DNA of 42,771 nt from IMG/VR virus record IMGVR_UViG_3300050154_000155; one strand, given 5' to 3'. How positions within the stretch are numbered: position 1 is the first letter of the stretch; every line of letters begins with the position of its first letter. Made by a program: the position numbers and the translations under genes. Under the pieces are notes generated by a model that was not told where the DNA came from, did not search any database, and saw only the letters and a list, made by a program, of their open reading frames with translations. The stretch comes from a virus. Shown here piece by piece: positions 128 through 41,616 of the stretch.

Positions 128-736
128 GCCCCAAACGTACCCCCAGTGACAGCGGTAGCCGATCCACTCGCCATGTTCAATACAGTCCCTGTCCCATTGA
201 CTGCGGGTGTAGCACCGTCGCCGATTGCACCCACCGTACTGCCAGCGGCGAACCTCCCAGGGGTAAACGTTCCGCTACCGAATGCAGCGGCAAACGTTCA
301 ACCGGCCAATGCCCCTACGGCACCTGTACCCCCTACGAACCCTGTAAACGTCGCTGAATATGACAGCGCTGGTATGCCGTGGGATGCCCGCATACACGCT
401 AAGAATAAAGGTAAAAAACAAGATGGTACATGGCGTAATGGCGTAGGCGTCGATCCAGAAGTTAAAAAGGCGGTTGAACTTGAATTAAAAGGCCAAACGG
501 CATCACCGCAACAAAATGCCTATATGGAATTTATTAAGGCGATCGGACCAAAATTGCGTAATGAAGCCGCGCCAAATAACCCAATTACCGAGGATTCTTA
601 TAACGCTATTCTCATGAAATATGGTGCGACTAACCCACAAACGGGTGCGCCTATGACCATGGCGTTGCAAGCTAAACCTGAATTAATCCCATTCGTACTG
701 GGGGATCTGCGCACGATATATGGAGCTATCATCTGA
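2..736 (+). CDS. 3' part of a junction-spanning early gene (5' part at 42547..42771; about 277 aa once circularised). Hypothetical protein with a Pro/Ala/Val-rich linker and a C-terminal domain containing DSAGMPWDARIH
   Basis: The frame is open from base 2 and is the same frame as the ATG at 42547 after removing the 127-bp overlap. Stop TGA 734-736 overlaps the next ATG (TGATG). Confidence 0.7.
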   Translation, partial: HSCATQDIKHVDAGLNDIPKTFAKPEPIKLGADGAKECGLEDAPNVPPVTAVADPLAMFNTVPVPLTAGVAPSPIAPTVLPAANLPGVNVPLPNAAANVQPANAPTAPVPPTNPVNVAEYDSAGMPWDARIHAKNKGKKQDGTWRNGVGVDPEVKKAVELELKGQTASPQQNAYMEFIKAIGPKLRNEAAPNNPITEDSYNAILMKYGATNPQTGAPMTMALQAKPELIPFVLGDLRTIYGAII

Positions 737-1836
737 TGTCATATCTATTCTGGCCGAGCCAATTTCATAAGCTGCTGCCATGCGCCGCTAGTCACAGCAT
801 GGAACAAGCAGTTGCCGATTTGGGTAGTAACGATGTCGAGGAAGGGCGGGCGGTACACGCAATTGCCGCACAACTGTTACATGGTGACAACTCACTGCAA
901 GTTGGAATGCTAACGGCTAACAACGTGATGTTCCGCACCGATATGTTAGAAGGCATCAAAGTTTATATTGACGATATTTGTGCAGCTAATTGTGATGAAT
1001 TGCATATCGAAGAAAGTTTGTCATGTCCGGCAATTCATGCTGGCTGTGGCGGCATCCCCGATGCCTGGGGTGTTAAGCGCCGCGAACGTATTATTTATTT
1101 ATGGGATCTGAAATGGGGGCATCGTTACGTTGATGCTTTCGAAAACCCAGCATTAATGGCATACGTTTCAGGCATTGTAACAGCTTTAGATATTGATGGA
1201 TTAGCAGAGGACTATTGGCAGGTTGTATGCACAATCGTGCAGCCGCGTAGTTATACCCCTGAAGGCGCGGTAAAACGTTGGTCATGCTATGCGTCTGAAA
1301 TGCGCGCGTCGTGGAATAAGCTAGCTGCTGCATGCCAGGATGCGCTAAAAGAATGCCCACCCGCCGCATGCGGTTCACATTGCAGGGACTGTCGAGCACG
1401 GGCAACATGCGGAACGCTGGCCCGAGAATGTTCGTCAATTGCCCAGCAATACCGTATGAGTGAGCAATTTCATTTAACGCCTGAGCAATGCGGTATGGAG
1501 CTGTCACGGCTTAAAGAAGATGAAGCGATATTGAAAGCGCGGATCGATGGCGTGGAAAGTAGCGTGATCAACGCACTCGAAAGCGGCAAGCAATGCGGAG
1601 GGTGGCAATATAAATCAGGTGCAGGAAGAACGATTTTCGCACATGGTCGAGAAGCCGAGGCGATCGGTACAGCGCAAATGTTGGGTATCAATATCATTGC
1701 CCCACGCGTACCCGTTACTGTCAAACAAGCTGAGGCGCTAGGTTTTCATCCAGAACAATATGGATTAACCGAAGTGCAGGCAGGCAAAAAGCAACTTGTT
1801 AAAGTTAACTTAAATAAAATTAAATTCGGAGAATGA
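736..1836 (+). CDS. PD-(D/E)XK nuclease, Cas4/DUF2800-like, with a Cys cluster
   Basis: 366 aa. It has an N-terminal Cys (LLPCAAS), a IYLWDLKWG core (D-x-K) and a C-terminal C-x3-C-x2-C-x5-C (CGSHCRDCRARATCG), as in Cas4/AddB-type Fe-S nucleases. It lies directly upstream of the SSB-like and polymerase genes. Confidence 0.6.
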   Translation: MSYLFWPSQFHKLLPCAASHSMEQAVADLGSNDVEEGRAVHAIAAQLLHGDNSLQVGMLTANNVMFRTDMLEGIKVYIDDICAANCDELHIEESLSCPAIHAGCGGIPDAWGVKRRERIIYLWDLKWGHRYVDAFENPALMAYVSGIVTALDIDGLAEDYWQVVCTIVQPRSYTPEGAVKRWSCYASEMRASWNKLAAACQDALKECPPAACGSHCRDCRARATCGTLARECSSIAQQYRMSEQFHLTPEQCGMELSRLKEDEAILKARIDGVESSVINALESGKQCGGWQYKSGAGRTIFAHGREAEAIGTAQMLGINIIAPRVPVTVKQAEALGFHPEQYGLTEVQAGKKQLVKVNLNKIKFGE

Positions 1837-2837
1837 AGATTATGGCTACCAAAACCGTTTTAGATATGTTGCTGCCAGTGGGTCGTTTAGTGGGTAGTTC
1901 ACTGTACGAACCTAAAACAACTGATAGCATGGGGCAACCGCATGTTTATAAATCGGGGCCGAAAATCGGTCAACCACGCCCAGATTATTGGTTAGCAATC
2001 GCGATTCCAAAAACACCAGGTGTCACCCATTGGGCTAATGAAACTTCACCCGTCGAAAGTATCGGTCAGTGGGGCGCTAAAATTTGGCAATTTGCGCATC
2101 AACAATGGCCGCAAGGTCAGTCTGACCGCCCCGATTTTAGTTGGAAAATTATTGATGGTGACAGCCAGATCCCCAATAAAGCCGGTAAAAAACCATGCGA
2201 TCAAGAAGGTTATCAGGGGCATTGGATTATTAACTTAGGCGGTTCCACTCAGCCACGCATTGCAACATTAGTCGATCCACAATCACCAGGTCGTGCCGTT
2301 GATTTGAGCACCCCTAACGCAATTTTGCCAGGATATTACGTGCAGGCACTGATCAGCATAGCTAGCAACGAATCGGCGCAAACTGCGGGCTTATATGTAA
2401 ATCATCGCATTGTTTGCCTTGCCGCATATGGCGAGCCTATCAGTTTTGCGCCAGCACTTGATAGCGTGCAGTGGGGCGGCGCGGCATTACCATCTGGGGC
2501 AAGTACAGTACCAGTGGCTAACATGGGTGCGCAAGCTGCCGTACCAACCGTACCAACCGTACCAACCGTACCAACCGTACCAACCGTACCAACCGTACCA
2601 ACCGTACCAACCGTACCAACCGTACCACAAGGTATGCCAGTGCTTCCGAACCCGGCGTTTGTTAATACGGCTATTCAGCAAGCCCAGGGTGTACCAACCG
2701 TACCAACCGTACCAGTTGTACCTGCCCCACCAGTAGCACCACAAATGACGGCGGCGGCACAAGGTGTATCCTATTCTGAATATATTAAGGCTGGGTGGAC
2801 TGATGAAATGTTACGCACTCAAGGCATGATGCTGTAA
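1833..2837 (+). CDS. Putative ssDNA-binding protein (gp2.5/DUF2815-like slot) with a (VPT)n low-complexity linker
   Basis: 334 aa. ATGA overlap with the upstream nuclease gene. It sits between the Cas4-like nuclease and the polymerase. The N-terminal globular part is followed by a Pro/Thr/Val repeat and a short C-terminal tail. The function is assigned from position only. Confidence 0.4.
   Translation: MKIMATKTVLDMLLPVGRLVGSSLYEPKTTDSMGQPHVYKSGPKIGQPRPDYWLAIAIPKTPGVTHWANETSPVESIGQWGAKIWQFAHQQWPQGQSDRPDFSWKIIDGDSQIPNKAGKKPCDQEGYQGHWIINLGGSTQPRIATLVDPQSPGRAVDLSTPNAILPGYYVQALISIASNESAQTAGLYVNHRIVCLAAYGEPISFAPALDSVQWGGAALPSGASTVPVANMGAQAAVPTVPTVPTVPTVPTVPTVPTVPTVPTVPQGMPVLPNPAFVNTAIQQAQGVPTVPTVPVVPAPPVAPQMTAAAQGVSYSEYIKAGWTDEMLRTQGMML
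2541..2627 (+). repeat. Perfect 9-bp tandem repeat gtaccaacc x9 plus a partial unit, encoding (VPT)9. Two more units at 2691-2708
   Basis: Units were counted directly at 2541, 2550 ... 2613. All three forward frames and one reverse frame stay open across it. Confidence 0.95.
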
Positions 2838-2854
2838 ATCTAAACATGAGGATT

Positions 2855-2878
2855 GGGCGCGTAATTGCGCCCTTTTTT
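2855..2878 (+). terminator. Rho-independent terminator/attenuator between the SSB-like gene and the polymerase gene
   Basis: gggcgc-gtaatt-gcgccc hairpin followed by tttttt. Confidence 0.6.
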
Positions 2879-2882
2879 ATTT

Positions 2883-4769
2883 ATGCAAAAACGTCCTATG
2901 TATGTGTGCGATACCGAATGTTATAAGGATTATTGGGCAATCGGTTTTACGTCGGTTGATAACCCTTTAATTCAATTAGAATATGTTTTTTGGCCTGGTT
3001 CACCGCCATTGCCAATTGCCGAATTAATTGCCTTTTTATCTAAAGTCACAATTATTACGTTCAATGGCGAGCATTATGATTTGCCCATGATCACGCTGGC
3101 GCTGTGTGGTTACAATAATGCGCAGTTAAAAGCCGCGAATGATATGATCATTTGCAAGGGGGTGAAGTCGTGGGAATTTTACGATTTATATAAGATAACG
3201 CGGCCACCATTTATCGATCACATTGACTTGATCGAGCCATCGCCAGGTGTCAAGATATCGCTCAAAGTGTACGCGGGGCGCATGTTTAGCAATAAGATGC
3301 AGGATTTACCCATCGAGCCGAGCCATAGCATTACGCCCGACTTGCGCCCGCTGATGTCAAAATATCGCAAAAATGACGAGAGCAATACGCTTGACCTGTA
3401 TAACAAAATAAAATCCCGCATTGCGTTACGCATTAAAATGTCTGACCAATACGGTATCGATCTGCGTAGTAAATCAGACGCCCAAATTGCCGAGGCGGTG
3501 ATCAGAACGTCAATTGAACGGGCAACGGGACAACGGCTTGAAAAACCATTCTGGCCGCACGGTACGCAATTTAAATTTAAGCCGTTACCATTTTTAATCT
3601 ATCAGACGTCACAATTGCAGAATGCGTATCTGATCATATGCGATGCACCATTTACGACATCGGATAAAGATCAGGTATTGGACGAGGAAGACGAAAACGG
3701 CAATAAAATAAAAACCGGTATAATCATACCCACCGAAATCAAAAAGCTGCGCATCACATTAGGCCAAACAACCTATAAATTCGGGTATGGCGGATTGCAT
3801 AGCCAGGAGCATTCAATTTCGCATATCGCTGATGCTGAGTTTGAGATAAGCGATCACGATGTAGCGAGCTTTTACCCCCGCATCATCCTCAACCAAAAAC
3901 TATACCCTAAGCAAATAGGACCATTATTTACGGGCATATACAACACGTTGGTTGAGACGCGTTTATCCGCTAAAAAGATATGCAAAGAATTGGAACATAA
4001 TAATTTAACCGATGACCTCCAATATGAGGAACAAGTAACAATCATGGAGGGTGGAAAGGTTACAATCAATGGCTCATTTGGTAAATTTGGCAGTAAATAC
4101 AGTATTTTGTTTAGCCCTGACCTGATGATCCAAACGACGATTAGCGGGCAATTATGCTTGCTAATGCTAATCGAAATGCTCGAACTAAACGGGGTAAGTG
4201 TTGTGTCAGCGAATACCGACGGCATTGTTATCAAATGCCCCCGTGCGTTTACCGACAGGCGTGATTACATTATCAAATGGTGGGAAACCACTTGTCAGTA
4301 TGAAACCGAAAAAACAGAATATGACGCGATCTATCAGCGCGATGTTAATAATTACATTGCGTTAAAACATGGCAAAGAACCAAAGTTAAAAGGCATTTTT
4401 GCCCCACCTGGATTACAGAAAAATCCCAATAATTCAGTATGTGTGAAAGCGGTTGTGGAATTAATCACGCATAAAACCCCCATCGAGCAAACGATATTTG
4501 GCGAGACTGATATTAAGCAGTTCCTATCAGTGCATAGCGTGAAAGGGAGCGCGGTTAAGGGCGATATCGTACTGGGTAAGGCGGTGCGCTGGTATTACGG
4601 CCTGGGTGAAACGGGAACGATAAACTACAAAACTAATGGCAATAAAGTACCACGTAGTGACGGTGCGGTGCCCCTGATGAATCTTCCCAATACATTACCG
4701 GCAAATATTGATTATGGTTGGTATATCCGCGAGGCGTATAAACTACTGACTGAAATTGATTACAAATAA
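2883..4769 (+). CDS. Family B-type DNA polymerase with an N-terminal 3'-5' exonuclease domain
   Basis: Exo I is YVCDTEC, Exo II is FNGEHYD and the Exo III-like motif is YRKND. Pol motif A is DVASFYPRII (Dx2SLYPS type), motif B is KVTINGSFGKFG (Kx3NSxYG type) and motif C is SANTDGIV (DTD type). The first ATG after the terminator was taken as the start. Confidence 0.75.
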   Translation: MQKRPMYVCDTECYKDYWAIGFTSVDNPLIQLEYVFWPGSPPLPIAELIAFLSKVTIITFNGEHYDLPMITLALCGYNNAQLKAANDMIICKGVKSWEFYDLYKITRPPFIDHIDLIEPSPGVKISLKVYAGRMFSNKMQDLPIEPSHSITPDLRPLMSKYRKNDESNTLDLYNKIKSRIALRIKMSDQYGIDLRSKSDAQIAEAVIRTSIERATGQRLEKPFWPHGTQFKFKPLPFLIYQTSQLQNAYLIICDAPFTTSDKDQVLDEEDENGNKIKTGIIIPTEIKKLRITLGQTTYKFGYGGLHSQEHSISHIADAEFEISDHDVASFYPRIILNQKLYPKQIGPLFTGIYNTLVETRLSAKKICKELEHNNLTDDLQYEEQVTIMEGGKVTINGSFGKFGSKYSILFSPDLMIQTTISGQLCLLMLIEMLELNGVSVVSANTDGIVIKCPRAFTDRRDYIIKWWETTCQYETEKTEYDAIYQRDVNNYIALKHGKEPKLKGIFAPPGLQKNPNNSVCVKAVVELITHKTPIEQTIFGETDIKQFLSVHSVKGSAVKGDIVLGKAVRWYYGLGETGTINYKTNGNKVPRSDGAVPLMNLPNTLPANIDYGWYIREAYKLLTEIDYK

Positions 4770-4830: not shown

Positions 4831-5307
4831 TTACAGTCCTAACGTTTTTGCTACATTAACAGCAGCGACAGCGTTATCAATCAGGGTAGAAACTTGTGGT
4901 TGCAGGGTAGTCCAGTCAGTGCCCAGCTTCTGCGCCATCGCACCAACTACAGCCATCACAGCTGCTTTTTTACTCGCACCTGCGCTAGTCTGTGCGGCGT
5001 AGGTAGTCTCTGCTTGATTAGCCAGAGCGATTGCATAGTTATACAAACTGGTGGCGTTGGCATCCAGTTGTTCGATAGTTGCCAGTGCTTGGCCTGCTTC
5101 CAGAATATTCAATGACATTTGCTTAGTTCCTTGTTCATCGTTAACGTTAACAGTAGGGGTAACCGCTACCGGAATAGTTTGTGCCACATTATCGGTTTTT
5201 GCAAGTTGTTCGACTACCCCAACCGCAGCTGTGACTACCGGTGCAGCACGTTTGCTTTTCCAGACTTGCAAAACAACACTGATAAACTCGAAAATGATCC
5301 GCCACAT
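4831..5307 (-). CDS. Membrane-anchored protein at the end of the lysis cassette (N-terminal hydrophobic helix, Ala-rich helical C-terminus). Holin_LLH-like or a spanin substitute
   Basis: The internal start M48 (MWRIIFEFISVVLQVW...) lies just after the endolysin stop. The C-terminus SAGASKKAAVMAVVGAMAQKLG...LIDNAVAAV resembles LL-H-type holin tails (from memory). No lipobox. Confidence 0.4.
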   Translation of the reverse strand: MWRIIFEFISVVLQVWKSKRAAPVVTAAVGVVEQLAKTDNVAQTIPVAVTPTVNVNDEQGTKQMSLNILEAGQALATIEQLDANATSLYNYAIALANQAETTYAAQTSAGASKKAAVMAVVGAMAQKLGTDWTTLQPQVSTLIDNAVAAVNVAKTLGL

Positions 5308-5311
5308 ATCG

Positions 5312-5851
5312 CTATTTCCTAAAATTTTGACAGAGTAAATCGGCTTCTTGTTCGCGCCGCAATACCTGACCATAGCAATTGTTATCTCTAATGCGACAAT
5401 CGCGGCCACGATCATGTATATAGGTCGTAATAGTCGTGCAAGCCTCATTAAGTTTTCCGTCCTGAATTAAGGTGATCACATCGCCTTTCATGCATTTGCC
5501 GACGCCTAAATTCCAAGGACAAAATGATGCGAGACCAACCTTCTGATATTCAGTTAATGGGTAATGAATATTCTTATTTACCCATTCCAGCGCTTTAGCA
5601 CGTTCCGCCGTATCAATGGCGTCACATTGCTTTTCGGTTAACCGTGTACCGCGCGCTACTTCTTTTCCGTTCGGTAAATAATGCACACCGCCGCATATTG
5701 TCCAGTAGCCAGATCCGTCCTGGTATGCGACTAAACGCGGCATACCTTCTTTTTCATTTAAAAATTGATTTAAGACACGTGGTCCACTTGCTCCGGTAGC
5801 AATCAGTGCTAATACTGCGGCGCTCAATGTTGTTTTCCTTTTAGTCCACAT
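5312..5851 (-). CDS. SAR endolysin, T4-lysozyme-like (GH24; P21 R / P1 Lyz type)
   Basis: It has an N-terminal weakly hydrophobic Gly/Ala-rich signal-anchor (TLSAAVLALIATGASG). The catalytic pattern is EG-x8-YQD-x5-WTICGG. The C-terminus reads ...GQVLRREQEADLLC. The ATG is preceded by GAGG. Confidence 0.8.
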   Translation of the reverse strand: MWTKRKTTLSAAVLALIATGASGPRVLNQFLNEKEGMPRLVAYQDGSGYWTICGGVHYLPNGKEVARGTRLTEKQCDAIDTAERAKALEWVNKNIHYPLTEYQKVGLASFCPWNLGVGKCMKGDVITLIQDGKLNEACTTITTYIHDRGRDCRIRDNNCYGQVLRREQEADLLCQNFRK

Positions 5852-6119
5852 GTTTACTGTCCTCAATAATTAGTGCCGATCGGTTTTCAACGGCTAACTT
5901 TTCCAAAACAGCCACACGGCGTTTTTCAGTTGCTGCCCGATCGCGGTCTATTGCATTTCTACGATAACTATTATAAGCGCTAATTACGCCAAAAGTGATC
6001 ATAAAAAAAGAGGATATCAGATATCCAATATCCTGAGCTGTTAGCCACGCAAATAAACCTGCGCACATTGCTGCAATTTGTGTCGCAATCTCTTGGATGG
6101 GTATCTTCCAGCTATCCAT
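5841..6119 (-). CDS. Holin, two-TMD pinholin-like
   Basis: 92 aa from the internal ATG (MDSWKIP...). There are two hydrophobic segments (IATQIAAMCAGLFAWL, IGYLISSFFMITFGVISAY) and a charged C-terminus. It overlaps the start of the SAR endolysin gene. Confidence 0.55.
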   Translation of the reverse strand: MDSWKIPIQEIATQIAAMCAGLFAWLTAQDIGYLISSFFMITFGVISAYNSYRRNAIDRDRAATEKRRVAVLEKLAVENRSALIIEDSKHVD

Positions 6120-6154
6120 ACGTTTAACCCCAATACGCTTGATATTGATTAAAA

Positions 6155-6182
6155 TCATTATTTGTAATCGCCGCTGTGTCAA
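6155..6182 (-). promoter_or_regulatory. Candidate sigma70-type promoter upstream of the holin gene (TTGACA-N16-TAATGA)
   Basis: Read on the minus strand: ccatTTGACAcagcggcgattacaaaTAATGAtttt. Confidence 0.3.
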
Positions 6183-6229
6183 ATGGTAAGACGCTGTCAC
6201 CTGGCAGAAGCCGCTTAAAAACTTCTACG

Positions 6230-6595
6230 TTAAGCATAATAACAAACAAAATTATGATTAACAGTTGCCGCTTTTATATAAATAGAATTAATGGGTACAC
6301 CGCTGGCGCAATCAAACAAAAGGCTTGCACCAGGTTGTAATGCAATACAGTTACCCGTTGCAAATGATGAGGTAATGTCGACATATAACGGTTCGGCGGC
6401 TGCGATGCCCTGATCAGTTAGGGTGAGTGGGTTTTGGATATAGAGATAACGGCGTTTCGGCGCGGCGGCTAGTAACAATTGTGCTGTTGCCGCTGTGGTA
6501 ATTTTTGCGCTGCCGTTCACAAACGTTAGCGGTGTTGCATTGTAGATGGGTAATGCTGAAAGGGAATTACTTGGATCAGTGGGTAATGCTGCCAT
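6230..6595 (-). CDS. Hypothetical small beta-rich protein (121 aa)
   Basis: The internal start MAALPTDPS was chosen because the longer ORF runs through the recombinase 3' end. It still overlaps the recombinase stop by 20 nt. No family recognised. Confidence 0.45.
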   Translation of the reverse strand: MAALPTDPSNSLSALPIYNATPLTFVNGSAKITTAATAQLLLAAAPKRRYLYIQNPLTLTDQGIAAAEPLYVDITSSFATGNCIALQPGASLLFDCASGVPINSIYIKAATVNHNFVCYYA

Positions 6596-7148
6596 GGTGC
6601 GTACTCCGGTTGATATATTTATAAACAGTTTTAGGGGAAATTTGGATAGCGTCTGCAATTTCTTGCACAGTTTTGCCATTTTCGCGCATTGAAAACATAT
6701 TATTCATTATAGCGGGGGTTACAATTCTTTTCCTACCACCAATATGCCCCTTGCTTCTCGCCACGGCTAAACCTGCTAATGTGCGTTCACTATTCAGATC
6801 TGATTCATATTGCGCTGCTGAAAGGATATTTCTAAAATTATAACGTCCACTTGCTGTTTTCAAATCAATGCCATCAGTTATCGATTTGAAATTGATATCG
6901 TTTTCCATTAAATGTTGAAACATAATCAAAACACCTAACACGTTGCGCCCTAATCTATCGATTTTCCAGACTATCAATTCATCACCAGTGCGTAGCATTG
7001 AAATTACACGTTTTAAAACAGGTCGATTTACGTTACGCCCGCTAGCATGTTCCTCAAATATTTGATCGCAATTTGCTAAACGTAACGCCGTTAATTGCAT
7101 TTCAGTGTCTTGATGATTTGTAGAAACTCTCGCATATCCTATTACCAT
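6576..7148 (-). CDS. Small serine recombinase, Hin/Gin/Pin invertase-resolvase family
   Basis: 190 aa. It has the N-terminal catalytic motif VIGYARVSTNHQ, then ...LIVWKIDRLGRN and a C-terminal HTH (GKTVQEIADAIQISPKTVYKYI). The ATG at 7148 is preceded by GAGAG. Confidence 0.85.
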   Translation of the reverse strand: MVIGYARVSTNHQDTEMQLTALRLANCDQIFEEHASGRNVNRPVLKRVISMLRTGDELIVWKIDRLGRNVLGVLIMFQHLMENDINFKSITDGIDLKTASGRYNFRNILSAAQYESDLNSERTLAGLAVARSKGHIGGRKRIVTPAIMNNMFSMRENGKTVQEIADAIQISPKTVYKYINRSTHHGSITH

Positions 7149-7314
7149 AATCACGCTCTCAATTTGAAAATAATTCAGTGCGATTATGCACTTAATTTAA
7201 CTTTATACAAAAGGTTGATAACAGTCGGGTTAGCGGCGGTAGATTTGAGACTGATTCATTCGGACGATTTGGCGCTGTTAAATCTGATTAATAAGGACAC
7301 CCTATGTTTATAAC

Positions 7315-7488
7315 ATGCAGGATCCTGATGATGATTGTGTTGCATGGAAGCCGAGCCTTATTGAGCTGTTTGGTAGCGCTGAGCTTTTGCCAGTCGTTAT
7401 GGAGGCATATCAAGAAGCACTGCTGCACATCGCTGAACTGGAGAAATACGCCAAAGCACGCGATGAAGAGATAAGGGGGAGTGAATGA
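7315..7488 (+). CDS. Small ORF (57 aa), coiled-coil, Ea22-like fragment
   Basis: It is not in the supplied track (under 60 aa). It translates to MQDPDDDCVAWKPSLIELFGSAELLPVVMEAYQEALLHIAELEKYAKARDEEIRGSE. Its TGA overlaps the next ATG (ATGA). Confidence 0.4.
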   Translation: MQDPDDDCVAWKPSLIELFGSAELLPVVMEAYQEALLHIAELEKYAKARDEEIRGSE

Positions 7489-8144
7489 GCATGACCAACG
7501 AACAAATTCAGGCGCTTAAAGAAGCTGCTGAGAAAGCTAAGATAGATGATTGGGGGTACGACTATGACGAGTTTAATGAATTGGTCAAACCTGATTCCAT
7601 TCTTGCCCTGCTTGCAGAGCGTGACGCGGATAAAGCGCTGATAGCGGAGCAGCGCGAGCACATTGCTGAACTTGAGCGCAAGAACGAAGCTATGACGGCC
7701 GTGGCGCTTGCAATGCGCGACGACATGCGAGAGGCACGCTCGCTCACTGATAATTCAATTAAGGGCCAAATGATGAATCGTGAATACATCGAAAATATTC
7801 TCGAATTGGCGCGTAAATACGATTATAAGTCTGACGATATTCATGCCCAGAATTTGGCGGCAGCATGCCCTCCTGTGGTTATTGAAGCTATGGCCCGCGC
7901 ACTGCTGGAAACGATGGAGCAAGCGCCGGATGGCCGTTACGTCGAATATAGCAGCGCAATGGGCTTCGCCAATCAGCAGATCAGCACTCATTCCGTTACA
8001 ATCAAAAAGTTGCAGAATGCGCATAAAGCGCAGATTATTCAGTTGCTGGCGGCATTTGAGGAAGTCTTACGGATTTCAGACCGCCAGCATGATGCGTGGG
8101 ATCGCGCTAAAGCGGCCATTGCTGCGGCAAAGGGGGATATGTGA
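7485..8144 (+). CDS. ead/Ea22-like protein
   Basis: The N-terminus MTNEQIQALKEAAEKA...ILALLAERDADKALIAEQREHIAELE matches the lambdoid Ea22-like pattern as remembered. Confidence 0.6.
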   Translation: MSMTNEQIQALKEAAEKAKIDDWGYDYDEFNELVKPDSILALLAERDADKALIAEQREHIAELERKNEAMTAVALAMRDDMREARSLTDNSIKGQMMNREYIENILELARKYDYKSDDIHAQNLAAACPPVVIEAMARALLETMEQAPDGRYVEYSSAMGFANQQISTHSVTIKKLQNAHKAQIIQLLAAFEEVLRISDRQHDAWDRAKAAIAAAKGDM

Positions 8145-8431
8145 GCTTACTTAAATTCCTTCCACCTGGGACAAATCTAAAGTTGCATGGAAAGGATTGC
8201 CGATACATTCAGTGGTTTGAGGTGTCCCTCGGTGGTTATGAGGTAATCGAAGTTGCCAAGTTTATTTACGAAGGCAAGGATATATACTTTGGCGTGGAAA
8301 TTTGCGACTCCCAGTTTAGCCTTTCAGAGCTTCTTGATGAGTGTAGTTCTCAGCCGTTTGCGTCCCTGCGTGAAGATATGAAGGCTTTCATAACCAGCCA
8401 CTTTAATAATCTCAAGGGCGGCGCAGCATGA
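8141..8431 (+). CDS. Hypothetical protein (96 aa)
   Basis: The GTG start overlaps the upstream stop (ATGTGA), so it is translationally coupled. No family recognised. Confidence 0.45.
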   Translation: MSLLKFLPPGTNLKLHGKDCRYIQWFEVSLGGYEVIEVAKFIYEGKDIYFGVEICDSQFSLSELLDECSSQPFASLREDMKAFITSHFNNLKGGAA

Positions 8432-8556
8432 ATAAAATCACCACCTACATGCTGTTTGCGGCAATTCTGATGCTGGTGGCAGCACTGGTGGCAAACGCTG
8501 GCTTACATTTCCTCGTTGCGCTGGGGAGCATTTACGTCGCTTTCAAAGGCCATTGA
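8428..8556 (+). CDS. Small membrane protein (42 aa)
   Basis: It is not in the track. ATGA overlap with the upstream stop. It translates to MNKITTYMLFAAILMLVAALVANAGLHFLVALGSIYVAFKGH, which is almost entirely hydrophobic. Confidence 0.4.
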   Translation: MNKITTYMLFAAILMLVAALVANAGLHFLVALGSIYVAFKGH

Positions 8557-8679
8557 GAGGGTCAGCAACAAGGCCGCCTAATTCAGAACGCACTGTAAGC
8601 AACGGGATATCAGCCGTTACCGGGTAATTTCATAGTAGCGTGACTCAACAATGACCGCGAACAACGCGGCAGGGACTTT

Positions 8680-9456
8680 ATGATCCACCATTATCACGGC
8701 GCTCCAATTTGGGGTGACAAGGGAAGTGTGCATAAAATTGCTGTAAATGGTGCTGGCGCTTTTGTTTCGTATGCCAGACCTAATCAATTGTCGGCGTCGT
8801 TTACATATGCGGCGAGTGTAGCAATAGATAATGGGGCGTTTTCCGCATGGAAAAGCGGACTTCGCATCAATTGGCTTGATTTTTATCGCTGGCTGACTCC
8901 ACACTATTACCATTCAAAAATGACATTTTTTGTAATTCCAGATGTGATTACGGGTAACGAGTATGACAACGATAATCTAATAAAATCCATGCCGAGGCAA
9001 TTTATCGAAAAGGCAGTTCCAGTTTGGCATTTACATGAATCAATCGACAGGTTAATTGAATTGTGTAAATGCTGGCCTCGCGTTTGTTTTGGGTCATCGG
9101 GTCAATATGCGCAAATTAGAACGGCAGTGTGGCATGCTAGGATGCGCGAAGCATTTTTGACTATCCATAGCCACGGATTATCTCCCCAAATACATGGCTT
9201 GCGAATGCTCGATGGACGAGTGCTAGGCAACTATCCATTAACAACGGCAGATAGCACAAACTTAGCGTGTAACGTTCCAAAATATAAGGTGAAATACCCG
9301 GAACTAACCAAGGCTGTCATGATGGCAGATTATGCTGTTGGGCTATCAGCCAGGGATCTTAACGTGCTTATTCTGAAACAAAGATGCGCCATACTCAAAG
9401 GGGCGATTGAGAGCGTAACTCCACCAACACTAAGAGAATACATTGAAAGCCTCTAG
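8680..9456 (+). CDS. Minimal TGT-fold protein, candidate DpdA-like nucleic-acid transglycosylase
   Basis: 258 aa. The ordered motifs resemble tRNA-guanine transglycosylase strand ends:
- GAPIWG (cf. PVGT)
- VAIDNGAFS (cf. TDSGGFQ)
- FVIPDV (cf. IFDEC)
- VWHLHES
- VCFGSSG (cf. AVGGL)
- IHGLRML (cf. LMGVG)
- TTADSTNLACN (cf. MFDCVMPTRNA)
Motif spacing is compatible with a trimmed TIM barrel. There is no Zn motif. Confidence 0.45.
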   Translation: MIHHYHGAPIWGDKGSVHKIAVNGAGAFVSYARPNQLSASFTYAASVAIDNGAFSAWKSGLRINWLDFYRWLTPHYYHSKMTFFVIPDVITGNEYDNDNLIKSMPRQFIEKAVPVWHLHESIDRLIELCKCWPRVCFGSSGQYAQIRTAVWHARMREAFLTIHSHGLSPQIHGLRMLDGRVLGNYPLTTADSTNLACNVPKYKVKYPELTKAVMMADYAVGLSARDLNVLILKQRCAILKGAIESVTPPTLREYIESL

Positions 9457-9661
9457 CCAAGCCTCATACCAGCAAACCGCCATCGATGCCGCTAGAAACA
9501 ACCCACGTCGGCAAAGCGAACAAGATGGCATGGCGAAGTGGACCATTGAGTTTCATGATGGGACCACGTTCCCCTACCTTACCAACGATTGCCGTGACCG
9601 TGAGCATGCGCTGCTTGGCGCAATCGAGCGGTTTGGTAAAAAGGTTCGAGACGTATATTAA
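9443..9661 (+). CDS. Hypothetical protein (72 aa, or 43 aa from the internal MAKWTIEF start)
   Basis: ORF only. It overlaps the upstream gene end by 14 nt. Confidence 0.35.
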   Translation: MKASSQASYQQTAIDAARNNPRRQSEQDGMAKWTIEFHDGTTFPYLTNDCRDREHALLGAIERFGKKVRDVY

Positions 9662-9913
9662 ATCCTTTTAGAACAATAGCATGTGCCGTATCACCCTCAT
9701 GGAGGAGGGTAGCATAAAGGGGTATGGTCAATACCACGATTCCGCACAGCAGGGCATACCTCACCCCTACAATTGATCCTTATCAACGCACTATCCCCCA
9801 TATCCACCAAAATCAAAACTGTCATGCGCCACCGGCCCATATCCCAGCGACCGCGCTTCCCGCATTTCAACATCGAAATAGAGCGAAGGTGACATGCCCA
9901 ATAAGGATAAAAA

Positions 9914-10516
9914 ATGTCAATCTTCAGAAGAGGTGCTGTCTGGTACGCGAGTTTCTCGCTCCCAGGCGGCAAAAGAATTAAAGAGTCTTTGCAAACAGAG
10001 AACAAAAGGGAGGCTCAAGAGTTACATGACAGACGAAAATCCGAACTGTGGCGTATAGACAAACTTGGCGAGGCTCCCAAAGTCACTTTTGATGAGGCGT
10101 GCTTGAGATGGCTAGAGGAAAAAGCGCACAAAAAATCGCTAGATGATGACAAAAGCCGGATCACATTCTGGCTTAATCATTTTGAAGGGGTATTGTTGAA
10201 CGATATAACTGAATCAAAGATTTATCTAGCAGTAAGCAAAATGACTAATCGTCGACATGAAGAAAACTACCGACTTAGTGCGGAATCTTTGATAAGAAAA
10301 GGAAAAGAACCACCCAAGTTTATTCCAAAGGCTGCGTCTGTCGCAACCAAAGCGACGCACCTTGCTTTTATCAAATCCCTGCTTCGTACGGCAGAGTTTG
10401 ATTGGAAGTGGCTTGAAAAGTCACCAATTATCAAAGTTCCGCAACCAAAAAATAAGCGTATCCGCTGGCTGGAAATGGCTGAGGCTAAGCGTTTAATTAA
10501 TGAATGTCCAGATTAG
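9914..10516 (+). pseudogene. int: Tyrosine integrase remnant: the N-terminal arm-binding and core-binding part only (200 aa); the catalytic domain is missing
   Basis: [21 protein letters not shown]...[18 protein letters not shown]...[29 protein letters not shown] closely parallels Rac IntR-type integrases (about 400 aa) as remembered. It stops exactly where the R..HxxR..Y catalytic domain should begin. No continuation exists in any frame. Confidence 0.8.
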
Positions 10517-10698
10517 CTGGTAGCGGTTGGTGTCGGCATGAACGGTTTCATGTTGTCTGGCAGGCTCTCGTAATATGCTTTGTAACGAGAGTCTGACTCT
10601 GTGATTTCCGCTTGATATGGCGCCGTTGCAGCATCCGGTTTAGCAAAAAAAATACCACTGATTGTTGCTTCAGCTGAGTTTGTAAATTGAGCATACAT
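10513..10698 (-). CDS. Small protein downstream of the tail fibre gene (possible fibre assembly factor)
   Basis: 61 aa and the last gene of the late operon. Its stop overlaps the stop of the integrase remnant by 4 nt. Confidence 0.4.
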
Positions 10699-10708
10699 AA
10701 TTCACCCC

Positions 10709-12112
10709 CTAAAATTCGTATCCATTGATACCTAGTAACGCATTTGAAACACCGGTTGTAGACCAAGTGAATTGATAGTACAGGGTTTGCGGGGTAACGA
10801 TATCTATATCAAAAGTAATATCTTCACCAATCGCCCCCAAAGTTCCAGCGTATACTTGAAAAAATCCAGCGCCATTGGTGTCTGCAGCTACTATGAATGT
10901 TGCAGAACCTGTGCCGCTGCCGGAATTACAAAAAGCGTAACCTTTGCATTTAGTTGCATTAAGCGGTGCGGCACCAGCCAGCGACATAGCAGTGTATGAC
11001 CCAGGATTACTCGCGATACTTAAAACTGTGACCCCTGTCCGCATTACACGACGGCCACGAACGTACGTACCAACCGCAAATTGCCCCAAATTGTTTGTTG
11101 GCACTACCGCAACTAACGCAGATGCGGTATACCCCGCTGGCGCGTTGCTGCCTGAGTAAATTTCGGCAGCTTTCGCGTTTGTTGCATTCCAACATATTAC
11201 GCATTTAGAGCCAGTAATGGGGTTTAGCATAAGATAAATTGCTACATACCCAGACGTCGGTGCAGAACCGGTATCCATCCCCCCAGCACCAGTTGTTCCC
11301 AAATTGACAGTCAGGCTGATCGAATTCAGTCGGTATTGTGTTCCGCCTAACGCTGTTTCAACGATCACTTCGTCAGCGGTAAACGTTCCGCTTGCACTCG
11401 CTGCGGGGAAAGACATCGCCGCATTTCTGGACTGGCCGACAATGCCCGTTAGGCCGCCGCCTAAACCAAGATTAGCGAGATTACTGATCGGCGCGTTGAC
11501 GATATACCATTTATTCGCGCTTGAACTGTATTTAAAACGCGTTGGATATCCTGCGATAAACTCACTGCCGACTAATGCCGAACCGAGACCATTATTAACA
11601 GGGACAGCGGTTAAACCGTTAAACGTAAGCGTAGTTGCTCCCGTTGGTGTATACGTTGGTGTGAGATTAATTTCCATGCCGTCAGTGGGCGTGGTTATCG
11701 CCGGATTAGTCGTAACAATCAAACTATTTGCCGCTGTGCTCGCGTCAGTGGCTTTTAAATATGTGCCGCCTAACAGATCGGTTGCTTGTACAATACCCGC
11801 TAATGTTCCGGCGGTGATCTGGTTAGCGCAAATATCACCGGCTACCCAGGATTGTGCAGTTGTTCCTTCTTGACCACGCGCAAGCGTAAACGTATCGCTA
11901 CTAATTGCGGTCACATACATTATTTCGGTTTTCGTTTGTGTAGCCGCGTCGGTTAATGACAAACGAAAAAACTGATTAGTAGAAAGCGTTGGAAATAATG
12001 CGCCAGTGCCCGACGCTACTGTTAAACTTGTCGCAGTAGCATTGATCGCGGCGGCAAGTGTTGTTTGCGCCTGATTTGCTGCCACCTCATGCATTGTTGT
12101 GATTGCTGCCAT
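10709..12112 (-). CDS. Tail fibre protein
   Basis: 467 aa. The N-terminus is a conserved fibre-type sequence (TLAAAINATATSLTVASGTGALFP...TLARGQEGTTAQSW). The rest is Gly/Thr/Ala-rich. It is last in the baseplate gene order. Confidence 0.65.
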   Translation of the reverse strand: MAAITTMHEVAANQAQTTLAAAINATATSLTVASGTGALFPTLSTNQFFRLSLTDAATQTKTEIMYVTAISSDTFTLARGQEGTTAQSWVAGDICANQITAGTLAGIVQATDLLGGTYLKATDASTAANSLIVTTNPAITTPTDGMEINLTPTYTPTGATTLTFNGLTAVPVNNGLGSALVGSEFIAGYPTRFKYSSSANKWYIVNAPISNLANLGLGGGLTGIVGQSRNAAMSFPAASASGTFTADEVIVETALGGTQYRLNSISLTVNLGTTGAGGMDTGSAPTSGYVAIYLMLNPITGSKCVICWNATNAKAAEIYSGSNAPAGYTASALVAVVPTNNLGQFAVGTYVRGRRVMRTGVTVLSIASNPGSYTAMSLAGAAPLNATKCKGYAFCNSGSGTGSATFIVAADTNGAGFFQVYAGTLGAIGEDITFDIDIVTPQTLYYQFTWSTTGVSNALLGINGYEF

Positions 12113-12115
12113 GTA

Positions 12116-12820
12116 TCACCCGATTATGTTGACTGTCCAGTTGTATTCAAATGGCAAATTTAATGCCCCTGATGCAACTGCCGATTGAAAAATTTGGGCA
12201 TATTGAATGCTCGTACCGGTCATTAACGTGCTGTTCAATTTGTTGTAACCCAGAGTATTAAACGGGATACAATTATACCCCATAAATTTAGTAACCGTTC
12301 TGATCCCATTATAGAGCGTAATCGTGGCGGTAGTACCTGCAAATGTCAGTGATATTTGATAATGCGAAGATTGCGAAATATCAGTGCCGTTAGTGCCATT
12401 CAAAAAACGTTTAACACGTCGTTTTACCCACGCTGGCGTAACTCGAAAGCCATCGCCGACATACATATTCCAGGTTAACACGCGCTTGAAAATATCATCG
12501 CTTGTCGCGTAATAGGTTTGGCTATCAATAAATTTTAATTTTTTGTAGGGATACTGATTGTAATTTATTGAATTATATAGCCCACGCATGCGGCGCGTAT
12601 CAGACGATAATAACGGGCGGCTTTGTCCATACAGCCCATTGGCTATCCAGTCGAGCAATGCGCCGGTTAAGTTGGTGCCTATCCAAATAGGCAAATTTAA
12701 ATTTTGCATCCAGGCAAAATGATCTGCAATGACCTGATTGATTGCCGCAAAAAGCGCCTGAATGTCCTGATCATCTTGGTATTGCCAATATGGGGTAAGT
12801 TGAAACGTTTGAGTTAGCAT
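12116..12820 (-). CDS. Baseplate / fibre-adaptor protein (Mu gp48 / P2 gpI position)
   Basis: 234 aa, between the J-like gene and the fibre gene. Assigned from gene order. Confidence 0.45.
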   Translation of the reverse strand: MLTQTFQLTPYWQYQDDQDIQALFAAINQVIADHFAWMQNLNLPIWIGTNLTGALLDWIANGLYGQSRPLLSSDTRRMRGLYNSINYNQYPYKKLKFIDSQTYYATSDDIFKRVLTWNMYVGDGFRVTPAWVKRRVKRFLNGTNGTDISQSSHYQISLTFAGTTATITLYNGIRTVTKFMGYNCIPFNTLGYNKLNSTLMTGTSIQYAQIFQSAVASGALNLPFEYNWTVNIIG

Positions 12821-12822
12821 AA

Positions 12823-26566: not shown

Positions 26567-28186
26567 TTATTTATTCCCCGCAAAAGTGGCACGACGTGCC
26601 GGTAATTTCCATGGGGCAAACGCAACACTTGGGTCACCGTGGAATTCACTGATTAAACGCCCAGTTTGATCGGCGCGACGCACTTCGCGTAAATTGCCTG
26701 CCCCAACCGCATCAATGCTAGTGGCATTAACTTGCGCGTCGGTGTAAATGCGCTCTTCGGCCATTGCCAACACACCACTGTTAGTGATTGAAGCAATGTC
26801 AATATCTTTAGCGCGTGGCGAATATTTCTGATATTTCAAAGCAAGACGTTTACGATAGGCCAATGCCGATTCACCGCGTTGTGCCATAGGTGCGCGTTCG
26901 CCGAATAAATTAGCCACGCTGTCGGCGCGGATTTGCGCATCGGCAATGGCGTTTGCTTCTTCGGGTGCGACTTCTGCGGTCTGTGCGTCGACACGGGCTT
27001 TTAATTCGCTCATTTCGTTACGCAATTTTTCTTCAGCGTCGGCATTCAGAGTTGGCTCAGGCATCGCACCGGCTGGGGCAACTGGCGGCACACCTTCGGG
27101 CTGAGCATCTTTTTGCAACTCGGATTCTTTATTTTCAGCGCCTTCCAATTTGGTGATACGCCCGCCCAATTCGTCGAGTTTACTCAAAATCTGCGATAAC
27201 GGATCGGCGGCGGGTGGTGTCGCGCCAGGTTGAGCGTCATTTTTCAACGCATCTTCTTTCTTATCTTCTGGTTCCATAATAACCTCATTTTGCAAAATGC
27301 CATCGGGTGCGCCTAATTTATCCCACACACCATTCGGAACTATGGCAATGTGATCAATCAATGTAGGCTTACCCTCAATTATAACCGGTGTACCATCAAT
27401 ATTAACCGCATTTTCGGCAATTGTTGAGGTTATTATTGACGGACTGGTACTCATTTGCGCATTTGCCAATATCTTAATTGTGTCGGCGTCATATACTCGC
27501 GCAATTGCCCATACGTCACTATCAACAATATACGCGTAAATAGTCGTCCCAACAATTTGATCTGAAAAACTTGCGTCGCTTAACATTCCTTTTTCGGGGT
27601 GTATGAAAATTACGGGCAATCCTTTGCACCGTTCCAGGAAATCAGCCGTGAGATAATTCTCAGGCACCCTGTAAGCATACTCGTTTTTACTGCCCCGCCA
27701 TGTTACGCCTGTACCGGTTATACGCAACGCATAAAGCATCATGTTGCTGTACCATTGGGGCGATGTTAACGCACCGCTGGCGATGTATTCTGCGCATTGC
27801 GTGTCGCTCATTGGGTCGCTGCCAAGTGTGGCAATTAACCCAGGGTGACAATTGTCGGGCAATGCGTCGCGCTCGAACCAACCCCATTCGCTAGACTCGT
27901 CTGAAATTATGGCGTCGGGTGCGTTATTAATTTTAACGCTATACGTGACAAAACCGTCAATGATAGAACGCGGCGTGAGAATATCAGGGGAAATCCCATC
28001 AATGCCGGTTTCCTCGAATAATTCCCGAACAGCGGCGACTTGTGGAGACTCGCCCGCCTCGATGTGCCCGCCTGGGATTGACCATTCGTTAGGGTGATCC
28101 TGCTGTTCACCGCGTTTTAATAGTAATATTCCTTTTGGGCTGGTAATCAAAATACCTGCTGCAAATGTATTAATTGGCTCGTTCAT
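26567..28186 (-). CDS. Nudix hydrolase domain fused to a prohead scaffold/protease-like (DUF2213-like) protein
   Basis: 539 aa.
- Residues 40-62 (GHIEAGESPQVAAVRELFEETGI) are a perfect Nudix box, GX5EX7REUXEEXGU.
- Residues from about 150 to 300 (ALRITGTGVTWRGSKNEYAYRVPENYL...LPVIFIHPEKG...IDHIAIVPNGVWD) look like DUF2213.
- Residues from about 300 to 440 are a Pro/Ala/Glu-rich coiled coil. Confidence 0.7.
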   Translation of the reverse strand: MNEPINTFAAGILITSPKGILLLKRGEQQDHPNEWSIPGGHIEAGESPQVAAVRELFEETGIDGISPDILTPRSIIDGFVTYSVKINNAPDAIISDESSEWGWFERDALPDNCHPGLIATLGSDPMSDTQCAEYIASGALTSPQWYSNMMLYALRITGTGVTWRGSKNEYAYRVPENYLTADFLERCKGLPVIFIHPEKGMLSDASFSDQIVGTTIYAYIVDSDVWAIARVYDADTIKILANAQMSTSPSIITSTIAENAVNIDGTPVIIEGKPTLIDHIAIVPNGVWDKLGAPDGILQNEVIMEPEDKKEDALKNDAQPGATPPAADPLSQILSKLDELGGRITKLEGAENKESELQKDAQPEGVPPVAPAGAMPEPTLNADAEEKLRNEMSELKARVDAQTAEVAPEEANAIADAQIRADSVANLFGERAPMAQRGESALAYRKRLALKYQKYSPRAKDIDIASITNSGVLAMAEERIYTDAQVNATSIDAVGAGNLREVRRADQTGRLISEFHGDPSVAFAPWKLPARRATFAGNK

Positions 28187-40926: not shown

Positions 40927-41041
40927 AATACTAATTGGGGTATTTATTGTTATTTGGTTTATTGTCGAAACTGAAAACGCAATTATTAACATGCAATTGT
41001 TTGATGCTATTAATAGTTTGAATGAGGCGCTACGAAAATAA
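40919..41041 (+). CDS. Small membrane protein (40 aa)
   Basis: It is not in the track. It translates to MGKILIGVFIVIWFIVETENAIINMQLFDAINSLNEALRK. It overlaps both neighbours (ATGGGTAA and TAATG). Confidence 0.35.
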   Translation: MGKILIGVFIVIWFIVETENAIINMQLFDAINSLNEALRK

Positions 41042-41616
41042 TGGCTAAAAAGTATCGGTTAATTTATGCAGATCCCCCGTGGCAATTCAGAGATGAATGC
41101 CATTCGGGTAGCCGTGGAGCGGGTTATCATTATCCGTTACTTAGCGTTCGGGATATCGCACGGCTACCGGTTGAACAACTTGCTGATGATAATTGCATCC
41201 TGGCAATGTGGTGGGTGTATTCCCAGCCTGCCGAGGCGTTGCAATTGCTCGATGCATGGGGGTTTAGGCTCATTACAATGGGCGGATTTACCTGGGGAAA
41301 AATTGCCGAATCAACCGGTAATCCAGTATTTGGCATGGGGTCAACCAGTCGCGCTAATTCAGAATGTTGTTTATTTGCAGTGAAGGGCAAAATTAACAGA
41401 GAGTCGGCCAGCGTGTCACAACTGGTTCTCAGTCCGCGTGGTCAGCATTCAGAAAAACCGGCAATAGTGCGCGATAAATTAGTTGAGTTATTTGGCGACG
41501 TTCCGCGCATTGAATTGTTTTCGCGTCAAAAAGTCGAGGGTTGGGATCAATGGGGCAATGACGCCGAATCGCCAGCTCTTTTTTATCAGCCTGGTTACTG
41601 GATGGGTTTATCGTGA
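41041..41616 (+). CDS. MT-A70 family N6-adenine DNA methyltransferase
   Basis: 191 aa. Motifs: IYADPPWQF (DPPW), ...HYPLL..., ...GQHSEKP.... Confidence 0.85.
   Translation: MAKKYRLIYADPPWQFRDECHSGSRGAGYHYPLLSVRDIARLPVEQLADDNCILAMWWVYSQPAEALQLLDAWGFRLITMGGFTWGKIAESTGNPVFGMGSTSRANSECCLFAVKGKINRESASVSQLVLSPRGQHSEKPAIVRDKLVELFGDVPRIELFSRQKVEGWDQWGNDAESPALFYQPGYWMGLS

Follow-up and report, generated by a model that had tools for sequence, protein, structure and literature searches.

A stand-alone dpdA-like gene in a metagenomic phage genome probably encodes a minimal DNA guanine transglycosylase

The window analysed here is the whole 42,771-nucleotide (nt) stretch of IMG/VR virus record IMGVR_UViG_3300050154_000155, which derives from a JGI metagenome. 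It is considered a complete circular phage genome of ~42.6 kb because an exact 127-nt direct repeat occupies its two ends (1-127 and 42645-42771). One of its genes, here called dpdA-like, is an open reading frame (ORF) for a protein of 258 residues (Table 1). Its ATG start lies just downstream of a Shine-Dalgarno-like box and agrees with the N-termini of homologs from Pantoea phage MED16 and Flyfo siphovirus Tbat1_6. The product is probably a minimal phage DpdA, that is, a triosephosphate isomerase (TIM)-barrel DNA guanine transglycosylase of the 'DpdA-only' subgroup, although its activity is predicted. A preliminary description, made from the DNA letters without database searches, had suggested a product with the fold of tRNA-guanine transglycosylase (TGT) and had left two options for it, a divergent DpdA clade or an unrelated TIM-barrel enzyme.

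Searches of the window protein against Pfam, NCBIfam and PADLOC recognise no family. Pfam and PADLOC return nothing at E <= 10, and the sole output of the three is a chance fragment of L-aspartate oxidase (E = 0.12). The DpdA proteins of phages CAjan and HK106 likewise have no match in Pfam. Deletion of CAjan dpdA abolishes the 7-deazaguanine nucleoside dPreQ0 in the phage DNA (PMC6884629). Because this validated DpdA is equally undetected, the negative Pfam result carries no weight, and the missing match to the TGT family (PF01702), which the preliminary description had proposed as a check, does not refute the assignment.

The phage-specific PHROGs collection does recognise the protein. It matches phrog_887, annotated 'queuine tRNA-ribosyltransferase', with E = 7.4e-78. 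CAjan DpdA falls in the same family (E = 8e-96), as do the DpdA-only proteins of phages 7-11, HK106, MED16 and SEN1. Profile comparison by hhalign links the two proteins directly. A profile built from close homologs of the window protein aligns to CAjan DpdA with 91% probability (E = 1e-6), and a diverse 113-sequence profile does so with 98.4% probability (E = 5.7e-15) over 168 aligned columns. The latter alignment pairs IDNGAFSAW and TADST of the window protein with LDSGAFSAH and SCDSS of CAjan DpdA. Together with 57% identity to MED16 gp38 and 36% to the DpdA of phage 7-11, these results sustain the proposal of a TGT-fold, DpdA-like product.

Homologs are numerous. A tblastn search of 50,697 phage genomes yields 105 records with a homolog of the window protein, including SEN1 and SW9 (68-69% identity, full length), Tbat1_6 (62%), MED16 gp38 (56.7%, full length), coliphage HK106 (38%) and the DpdA of Salmonella phage 7-11 (36%, E = 2e-47). 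The wider family comprises 3941 clusters at 90% identity (E < 1e-5) or 1044 at 50% (E < 1e-3). The best 120 of the 3941 come mainly from Enterobacterales and, where named, are called 'hypothetical protein'. An identical copy of the window protein occurs on 13 contigs. Published surveys have already recognised the group to which these proteins belong. A third group of 76 DpdA-only phages was defined in 2019 (PMC6884629), and Hutinet et al. found that stand-alone DpdA proteins cluster by host clade, including one from phages of γ-proteobacteria. MED16 was characterised by Šimoliūnienė et al. 2021, who assigned SEN1 and SW9 to the same branch (PMC8306585). The window protein belongs to this MED16/SEN1/SW9 branch. 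Its gene is therefore an added member of a clade described in 2019 and 2021 (the latter as DpdA/TGT_1; PMC8306585), and the divergent DpdA clade entertained in the preliminary description is not a new one.

The first indication of a TGT-like enzyme was a series of five short motifs, DNGAF, IPDV, GSSG, IHGLRML and ADSTN, which had been likened to DSGGF, FDEC, VGGL, LMGVG and FDCV of TGT. All five are present in the order given. The E. coli Tgt counterparts begin at residues 89, 142, 212, 243 and 263. Spacing nearly agrees over the last two intervals, at 31 and 20 residues in Tgt against 33 and 19 in the window protein, which is more compact over the first two. Taken alone, the five-motif likeness would not exceed chance. 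It becomes meaningful because conservation across the family peaks at the motif residues. Conservation was scored in an alignment of 113 sequences whose mutual identities do not exceed ~50%, namely the window protein itself, five homologs from phages and 107 sequences that each represent a 50%-identity cluster. Asp88 (D88) is invariant (113/113), and D50, F/Y54, H117 and G138 are each retained in 111 of the representatives. H172 and D191 follow with 102 each, R175 with 101 and L174 with 99, while S139 (95/113) and S140 (84/113) are more variable.

Table 1. Positions of the dpdA-like gene, its conserved motifs and other features of the window.
Feature	Residues	Nucleotides	Strand	Remarks
dpdA-like ORF		8680..9456	+	ATG 8680; stop 9454-9456; 258 aa
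Shine-Dalgarno-like box AGGGA		8671..8675	+	4 nt 5' of ATG; read from sequence
DNGAF	50-54	8827..8841	+	end of predicted strand β3; aligned to LDSGAFS of CAjan DpdA
IPDV	86-89	8935..8946	+	D88 just past predicted strand β4
W116-H117	116-117	9025..9030	+	after strand β5; aligned to 'FH' of CAjan DpdA
GSSG	138-141	9091..9102	+	end of strand β6; aligned to IGGM of CAjan DpdA
IHGLRML	171-177	9190..9210	+	strand β7; aligned to LHAFGI of CAjan DpdA
ADSTN	190-194	9247..9261	+	predicted strand β8; aligned to SCDSSS of CAjan DpdA
Accessory block with dpdA		6576..10698	both	~4 kb between tail-fibre gene and lysis genes
Serine DNA invertase, Hin/Gin-type		6576-7154	-	phrog_125; PF00239 + HTH_7
Small ORFs of accessory block		7315-8556	+	
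72-aa ORF of accessory block		9443-9661		
Truncated tyrosine-integrase fragment		9914-10516	+	phrog_10426
61-aa ORF of accessory block		10513-10698	-	
MT-A70 adenine methyltransferase		41041..41616	+	PF05063, E = 3.1e-21; phrog_359 'DNA methyltransferase', E = 6.9e-90

An AlphaFold2 model of the window protein (pLDDT 93.1, pTM 0.90) is an eight-stranded β/α barrel in which strands alternate with helices. Little else is present: the model consists of the bare barrel and a short helical tail, and the conserved residues are found at the C-terminal ends of strands β3 to β8. In the model, their positions appear to match those described for Asp95, Asp130, His181, Leu236 and Asp256 of bacterial DpdA (PMC10164549). 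A Foldseek search of the BFVD collection returns 30 matches with E < 1e-3, many of which are annotated as phage queuine tRNA-ribosyltransferases.

The bacterial enzyme provides a guide to what individual residues may do. Its Asp95 serves as the general acid/base within a DxxxF context that includes Phe99, Asp130 and His181 contact the edge of the base, Leu236 stacks on the base, and Asp256 is the nucleophile (PMC10164549). By comparison, D50 of the window protein would be the general acid/base, F54 a base-stacking residue like Phe99, and D191 the catalytic nucleophile equivalent to Asp256 and to the aspartate of TGT FDCV. D88 would be the base-recognition aspartate that corresponds to Asp130 and to FDEC of E. 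coli Tgt. This last equivalence draws on position and conservation only, because hhalign places the CAjan aspartate three residues away. H117 is a candidate counterpart of His181 with a putative role to match. The IHGLRML segment would correspond to LMGVG of TGT and to Leu236 of bacterial DpdA. GSSG is likely the counterpart of VGGL in TGT and IGGMVG in CAjan DpdA, and it would form a wall of the pocket for the 7-substituent.

What the window protein lacks is also informative. The preliminary description had noted a product much shorter than TGT and devoid of its zinc site, and this is correct: the protein has 258 residues compared to 375 in E. coli Tgt and 413 in bacterial DpdA (7UI4), and no CxCxxC is found in it. 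E. coli Tgt carries this element as CDCYTC at residue 302, and bacterial DpdA has a large Ins8 insertion that is pinned by a CxCx2Cx22H zinc site (PMC10164549). Only 67 residues follow D191 in the window protein, and the cysteines and histidines that are present form no zinc motif. The sequence C129-x-C131-x4-C136 was considered as a zinc site and rejected, as C131 is not conserved. Since CAjan DpdA (306 aa) lacks the motif as well, a minimal zinc-less form is a trait of phage DpdA1-type proteins.

These absences bear on whether the enzyme could act on tRNA, such that the phage would rewire the queuosine modification of host tRNAs and DNA would not be the target. The public annotation of the family as 'queuine tRNA-ribosyltransferase' agrees with such a role, and the very low levels of DNA modification reported for relatives could then be a side activity. 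However, these names were passed on automatically from similarity at the HHpred level, and the protein is devoid of both the zinc subdomain (Ins8) and the Ins3 elements with which TGT binds the anticodon stem-loop (PMC10164549). The closest validated relative, CAjan DpdA, acts on DNA (PMC6884629), and homologs are found in replication and DNA-modification operons beside Dam and gene A. A tRNA-directed function is thus highly improbable.

A DNA transglycosylase requires a 7-deazaguanine to insert, and the source of this base was sought in the window. All ORFs of at least 50 residues were scanned with PHROGs, the non-structural ORFs were scanned with Pfam and PADLOC, and the genome was searched in six frames by tblastn with CAjan FolE, QueD, QueC, QueE and YhhQ. 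These searches of the closed genome reveal no FolE, QueD, QueE, QueC, QueF, amidotransferase, YhhQ, DpdB or DpdC, and every tblastn match has E > 0.3. The only PADLOC Dpd matches are weak, generic helicase-domain similarities of the replicative helicase to DpdF. Pfam matches to 'Serglycin' were dismissed as artefacts of the Gly-Ser linkers used in the scan. The reported lack of FolE, QueD, QueE and QueC is therefore confirmed, as is its corollary that any activity would need host preQ0 or preQ1: with no gene for preQ0 synthesis in the genome, the host is the sole source of precursor. A second modification gene was also correctly identified. This is the MT-A70 adenine methyltransferase (Table 1), which is independent of, and stands outside, the reaction proposed for DpdA.

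A plausible reaction can be outlined by analogy with characterised DpdA proteins (PMC10164549, PMC6884629). The enzyme would flip a guanine out of double-stranded phage DNA after replication, with D88, H117, F54 and L174 holding the base. D191 would then attack C1' and displace the guanine to give an intermediate in which enzyme and DNA are covalently joined, D50 serving as general acid/base. Finally, a free 7-deazaguanine would be inserted in place of guanine. This base may be preQ0 supplied by the FolE-QueD-QueE-QueC pathway of the host, or a close derivative. As the phage encodes no precursor gene, YhhQ, DpdB or DpdC, such activity would be fully dependent on the host precursor pool.

Judged by two analysed relatives, modification is expected to be sparse. 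MED16 and 7-11 encode dpdA as their only 7-deazaguanine gene (PMC8306585, PMC6884629). MED16 DNA contains 354 dADG and 3 dPreQ0 per 10^6 nt, which corresponds to modification of ~0.13% of G (PMC8306585), and phage 7-11 DNA contains 50 dADG and fewer than 6 dPreQ0 per 10^6 nt (PMC6884629). At these densities, the window phage would carry ~30 (MED16) or ~4 (7-11) modified G per genome, in the form of dADG, and bulk replacement would not occur. The purpose ascribed to DpdA in the preliminary description, evasion of restriction, is less certain for the DpdA-only clade. No protection was seen for MED16, whose DNA is cut by every G-containing restriction enzyme tested except for methylation-sensitive ones (PMC8306585).

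Several observations weigh against the assignment as a DNA transglycosylase fed by host preQ0. The protein has no Pfam match, and hmmsearch of all PDB sequences with two family profiles finds only noise (GCN4 coiled coils and a ribosomal protein). Alignment by hhalign to a profile of 81 γ-proteobacterial Tgt sequences is not significant (E = 0.1), nor is that to the single E. coli Tgt sequence, for which a forced global alignment is meaningless. The best local piece of the non-significant profile match pairs VCFGSSG with YAVGGLAVGE, the same pairing of GSSG with VGGL that was made in the preliminary description. In a Foldseek search of the PDB, generic TIM barrels lead, 7UI4 ranks 21 (E = 1.1e-2, TM 0.41) and archaeal TGT 1J2B ranks 47 (E = 2.2e-2). 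The activity of DpdA-only members, the window protein included, is predicted. The link between dpdA and dADG in MED16 and 7-11 is a correlation (PMC8306585, PMC6884629), and another DpdA-only phage, Mycobacterium phage Orion, has wholly unmodified DNA (PMC6884629). The identity of the inserted base is uncertain because the relatives hold dADG rather than dPreQ0 and no DpdC is encoded. Lastly, the host preQ0 pathway is itself presumed from the Enterobacterales-like relatives of this metagenomic phage.

Some of these observations could instead indicate a diverged TIM barrel that no longer exchanges bases, for example, a DNA glycosylase, an AP-type nuclease or an inactive remnant in a scrambled block. 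All PDB matches found by Foldseek are TIM barrels, and the search cannot tell the model from them. Because DpdA and TGT are not separated from pyruvate kinase, HpcH aldolase and other barrels, this result is not counted either way. The structural check proposed in the preliminary description would look negative in the PDB, where generic barrels come ahead of 7UI4, but this does not refute the assignment. BFVD is more informative, with many matches annotated as phage queuine tRNA-ribosyltransferases. The gene also adjoins a truncated integrase and other recombination debris, and the Orion gene yields no modification, a negative that is explained by a host without preQ0 synthesis (PMC6884629). 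A remnant is difficult to reconcile with an intact ORF that has a ribosome-binding site and with identical copies of its product on 13 contigs. Furthermore, the three catalytic aspartates and the base-binding residues are near-invariant among the 113 representatives of a family of 1044 clusters, a pattern that speaks for a TGT-like active site under purifying selection. A barrel without base exchange is therefore very unlikely, and a functional DpdA is the preferred reading. Its proposed tie to TGT proper rests on a chain through DpdA1 and on the published HHpred result for the MED16 protein (57% identical), which gives 99.18% probability to TGT 2ASH (PMC8306585).

A different concern is whether the same fold and chemistry serve another substrate. 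The enzyme could insert ADG or CDG directly (side products or intermediates of QueC/QueE in the host), or another 7-deazapurine, in place of preQ0. It would then mark only a small number of particular sites, as a signal in regulation, packaging or anti-defence, and would not provide bulk camouflage against restriction. The composition of MED16 and 7-11 DNA, with dADG and nearly no dPreQ0, fits this idea, given that no DpdC-like hydratase is encoded there or here, and so does the susceptibility of MED16 DNA to restriction described above. The β6 pocket reads GSSG in the clade and IGGM in the preQ0-inserting CAjan enzyme, a difference that is based on one comparison sequence. The VH7D DpdA2 protein can insert CDG, preQ0 and preQ1, such that substrate drift has occurred in the family (PMC10516641). 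On the other hand, all DpdA enzymes assayed in vitro or in E. coli use preQ0 or preQ1 as the main substrate (PMC6884629, PMC10516641), and dADG could arise from slow hydrolysis of dPreQ0 or from a host activity on it. An alternative substrate is accordingly considered unlikely. Free ADG is not known to build up in Enterobacteria, which also counts against it.

A broader form of this proposal is that the whole DpdA-only clade is functionally distinct, rather than a weakened version of the Queuovirinae system, and uses its GSSG pocket to place host-derived ADG or CDG. Only ~5-30 defined sites in each genome would be marked, and the mark would act as a signal of an epigenetic, packaging or anti-defence kind, not as bulk camouflage. 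We regard this as a rather doubtful idea. If true, it would explain the dADG in relatives, the absence of DpdC and the lack of restriction protection in MED16.

The surroundings of the gene suggest how it came to be in this genome. As had been proposed, dpdA lies in an accessory block: for the proteins encoded at 4831-10766, phage PdC23, a relative, has no equivalents, in contrast to the flanking structural module. Of the integrase in this block, an N-terminal stretch of 200 residues persists without the catalytic domain and shares 71% identity with the enzymes of SfV, ES18 and Hafnia phage yong1. Since phrog_10426 is a 193-position family of such fragments, other phages may carry integrases truncated in this way. 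These features point to a dpdA gene that was acquired as a single-gene cassette within a recombination-scarred accessory block.

Two other candidate relationships within the block were examined and rejected. The gene is not part of a Gin-type invertible segment, as the inverted repeats are all short and imperfect, and the best of them is 18 nt long at 89% and lies inside coding sequence. The 42-residue membrane ORF upstream (8428-8556) is not a YhhQ remnant, as it has no similarity to three YhhQ/Vut_1 proteins. The serine invertase itself is located ~3.5 kb from the tail-fibre gene (10709-12112), and no Gin-type inverted repeats surround the block. On its other side, the lysis cassette (4831-6679, minus strand) encodes a lysozyme (5312-5851, PF00959) and a holin-like ORF (5841-6200, phrog_1350). 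Longest-ORF picking misses the lysozyme because it overlaps a longer ORF at 4831-5448.

The remainder of the genome is a mosaic of two modules, and dpdA sits in neither. The structural module (10709-31674) is syntenic with those of Certevirus phages such as Pantoea phage PdC23, with 32-64% amino-acid identity, and its relatives also include the Chronis and Yersinia YenM phages. The replication module (736-4769 and 35880-40403) encodes an exonuclease, a single-stranded DNA-binding (SSB)-like protein, a DNA polymerase, a primase and a helicase akin to the proteins of Queuovirinae-type phages. For the polymerase, identity is 40% to the CAjan enzyme (E = 8e-130) and 44% to that of Quinobequin-P09. 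These Queuovirinae-type relatives carry full 7-deazaguanine clusters. The interval between helicase and polymerase, which holds the que/dpdA cluster in Queuovirinae, is occupied here by the MT-A70 methyltransferase, a nuclease and a helix-turn-helix gene. When the phage collection is searched with the window by megablast, no match is obtained. The accessory block likewise has no megablast match in E. coli genomes, so that neither search points to a host at the DNA level.

Three further proteins of the genome have notable architectures. A 539-residue head-module protein (26567-28186, minus strand) fuses an N-terminal NUDIX domain (PF00293, E = 2e-19) to a DUF2213/prohead-protease-like region. 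This fusion is conserved in PdC23 gp04, and it is uncommon for a capsid-assembly gene to contain a NUDIX domain. The Gp2.5-like single-stranded DNA-binding/annealing protein (1833-2837, plus strand; phrog_7011) has nine tandem PTV repeats before its C-terminal tail. A protein of 191 residues (33286-33861, plus strand; phrog_21347) has a long Ala/Tyr/Asn-rich, low-complexity core of AAYAAA-like repeats.

Homologs of the gene occupy a variety of positions in other phages. In 186-like prophages of E. coli, the homolog lies between a Dam methyltransferase and replication gene A, and in SEN1 it lies just ahead of gene A. In HK106 it is found in the early-left region beside xis and int, in Serratia and Pectobacterium lambdoid prophages it resides in the nin region, and in MED16 and 7-11 it is among the early genes. 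A conserved partner gene was sought and ruled out, as none of the neighbours from MED16, SEN1, HK106, 7-11, Tbat1_6 and a Shewanella-associated phage contig has a homolog in the window. The gene itself travels between unrelated phages as a lone cassette that enters their DNA-metabolism slots. One E. coli 186-like prophage also has a P2/186 hotspot downstream of dinI (10022-12822 of that sequence) with strain-variable cargo that includes an AIPR protein. Its content suggests that 186-like prophages carrying dpdA also hold anti-phage defence genes.

A few homologs have telling associations. A Vut_1/YhhQ transporter gene directly adjoins the homolog in the Shewanella-associated contig and in Tbat1_6. 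In one family member (P0202; 335 aa, E = 2e-39 against the profile), DpdA is fused at its N-terminal side to a QueD/PTPS domain that shows a CxxH...HGH signature. Another (P0121; 421 aa) is either a fusion or a chimera of Dam (MethyltransfD12) and DpdA that mirrors the gene adjacency of the 186-like prophages. In a third (P0126), the N-terminal part of DpdA is joined to a phage gpD baseplate-hub domain, probably through an assembly or frameshift chimera.

Among characterised systems, MED16 is the most informative comparison. Its gp38 resembles the window protein in size (261 versus 258 residues) and motifs, and in both genomes dpdA is the sole 7-deazaguanine gene and is accompanied by an adenine methyltransferase, which is of the Dam type in MED16 and of the MT-A70 type here. 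The phages differ in backbone. The window phage is a Certevirus-like myovirus whose replication module is of the Queuovirinae-like kind; MED16, a siphovirus, and SEN1, a 186-like temperate phage, are both unrelated to it. No genes that neighbour dpdA in MED16 or SEN1 are shared with the window genome. For MED16 DNA, chemical analysis gives dADG at 0.13% of G. Phage 7-11 encodes a protein of the same PHROG (gp032) and, as here, a DpdA without FolE, QueD, QueE, QueC or an amidotransferase. The authors who described this third group proposed reliance on host preQ0 or on uptake (PMC6884629). Phage 7-11 differs in being a 90-kb virulent phage with a more distant DpdA that is annotated 24 residues shorter at its N-terminus.

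CAjan DpdA (DpdA1, Queuovirinae) is homologous across window residues 26-197 with only ~19% identity. The two proteins are alike in lacking both CxCxxC and a Pfam match, and they differ in their β6 motifs. The CAjan protein has 306 residues and its gene resides in a folE-queD-yhhQ-queC-queE cluster, whereas the window dpdA stands alone. With this cluster, CAjan replaces ~32% of its G with dPreQ0 (PMC6884629).

Bacterial DpdA (S. Montevideo, 7UI4) is also a TIM-barrel DNA transglycosylase and appears to use the same set of catalytic residues on the same strands. Its Ins1, Ins2, Ins3 and Ins8 insertions and its CxCx2Cx22H zinc site are all missing from the window protein. The bacterial enzyme requires the DpdB ATPase and cooperates with DpdC. 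Both partners are absent from the window genome, and the PADLOC models for Dpd systems do not match the window protein. Bacterial Tgt (PF01702) has the same order of five motifs and presumably the same reaction chemistry. The window protein is 117 residues shorter than the E. coli enzyme, lacks its zinc site and tRNA-binding insertions, and has no significant sequence or profile match to it. The expected substrates are DNA for the window protein and tRNA for Tgt.

The example described here shows that a large family unseen by Pfam, NCBIfam and PADLOC can nonetheless be called as DpdA with good confidence. With the window genome, a further case is added in which a stand-alone dpdA was acquired independently; the phage backbone is new, and an MT-A70 methyltransferase accompanies the gene. 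Two new comparative links, the adjacency of YhhQ genes and the QueD-DpdA fusion, favour a role of the clade in 7-deazaguanine chemistry. The MED16 study raised the question of what sparse dADG does and how it is formed without DpdC. DpdA-only phages are also potential targets of modification-dependent defences against 7-deazaguanine DNA, such as GrwAB and Dag1/Dag2 (PMC12137116; bioRxiv 10.1101/2025.10.29.685425).

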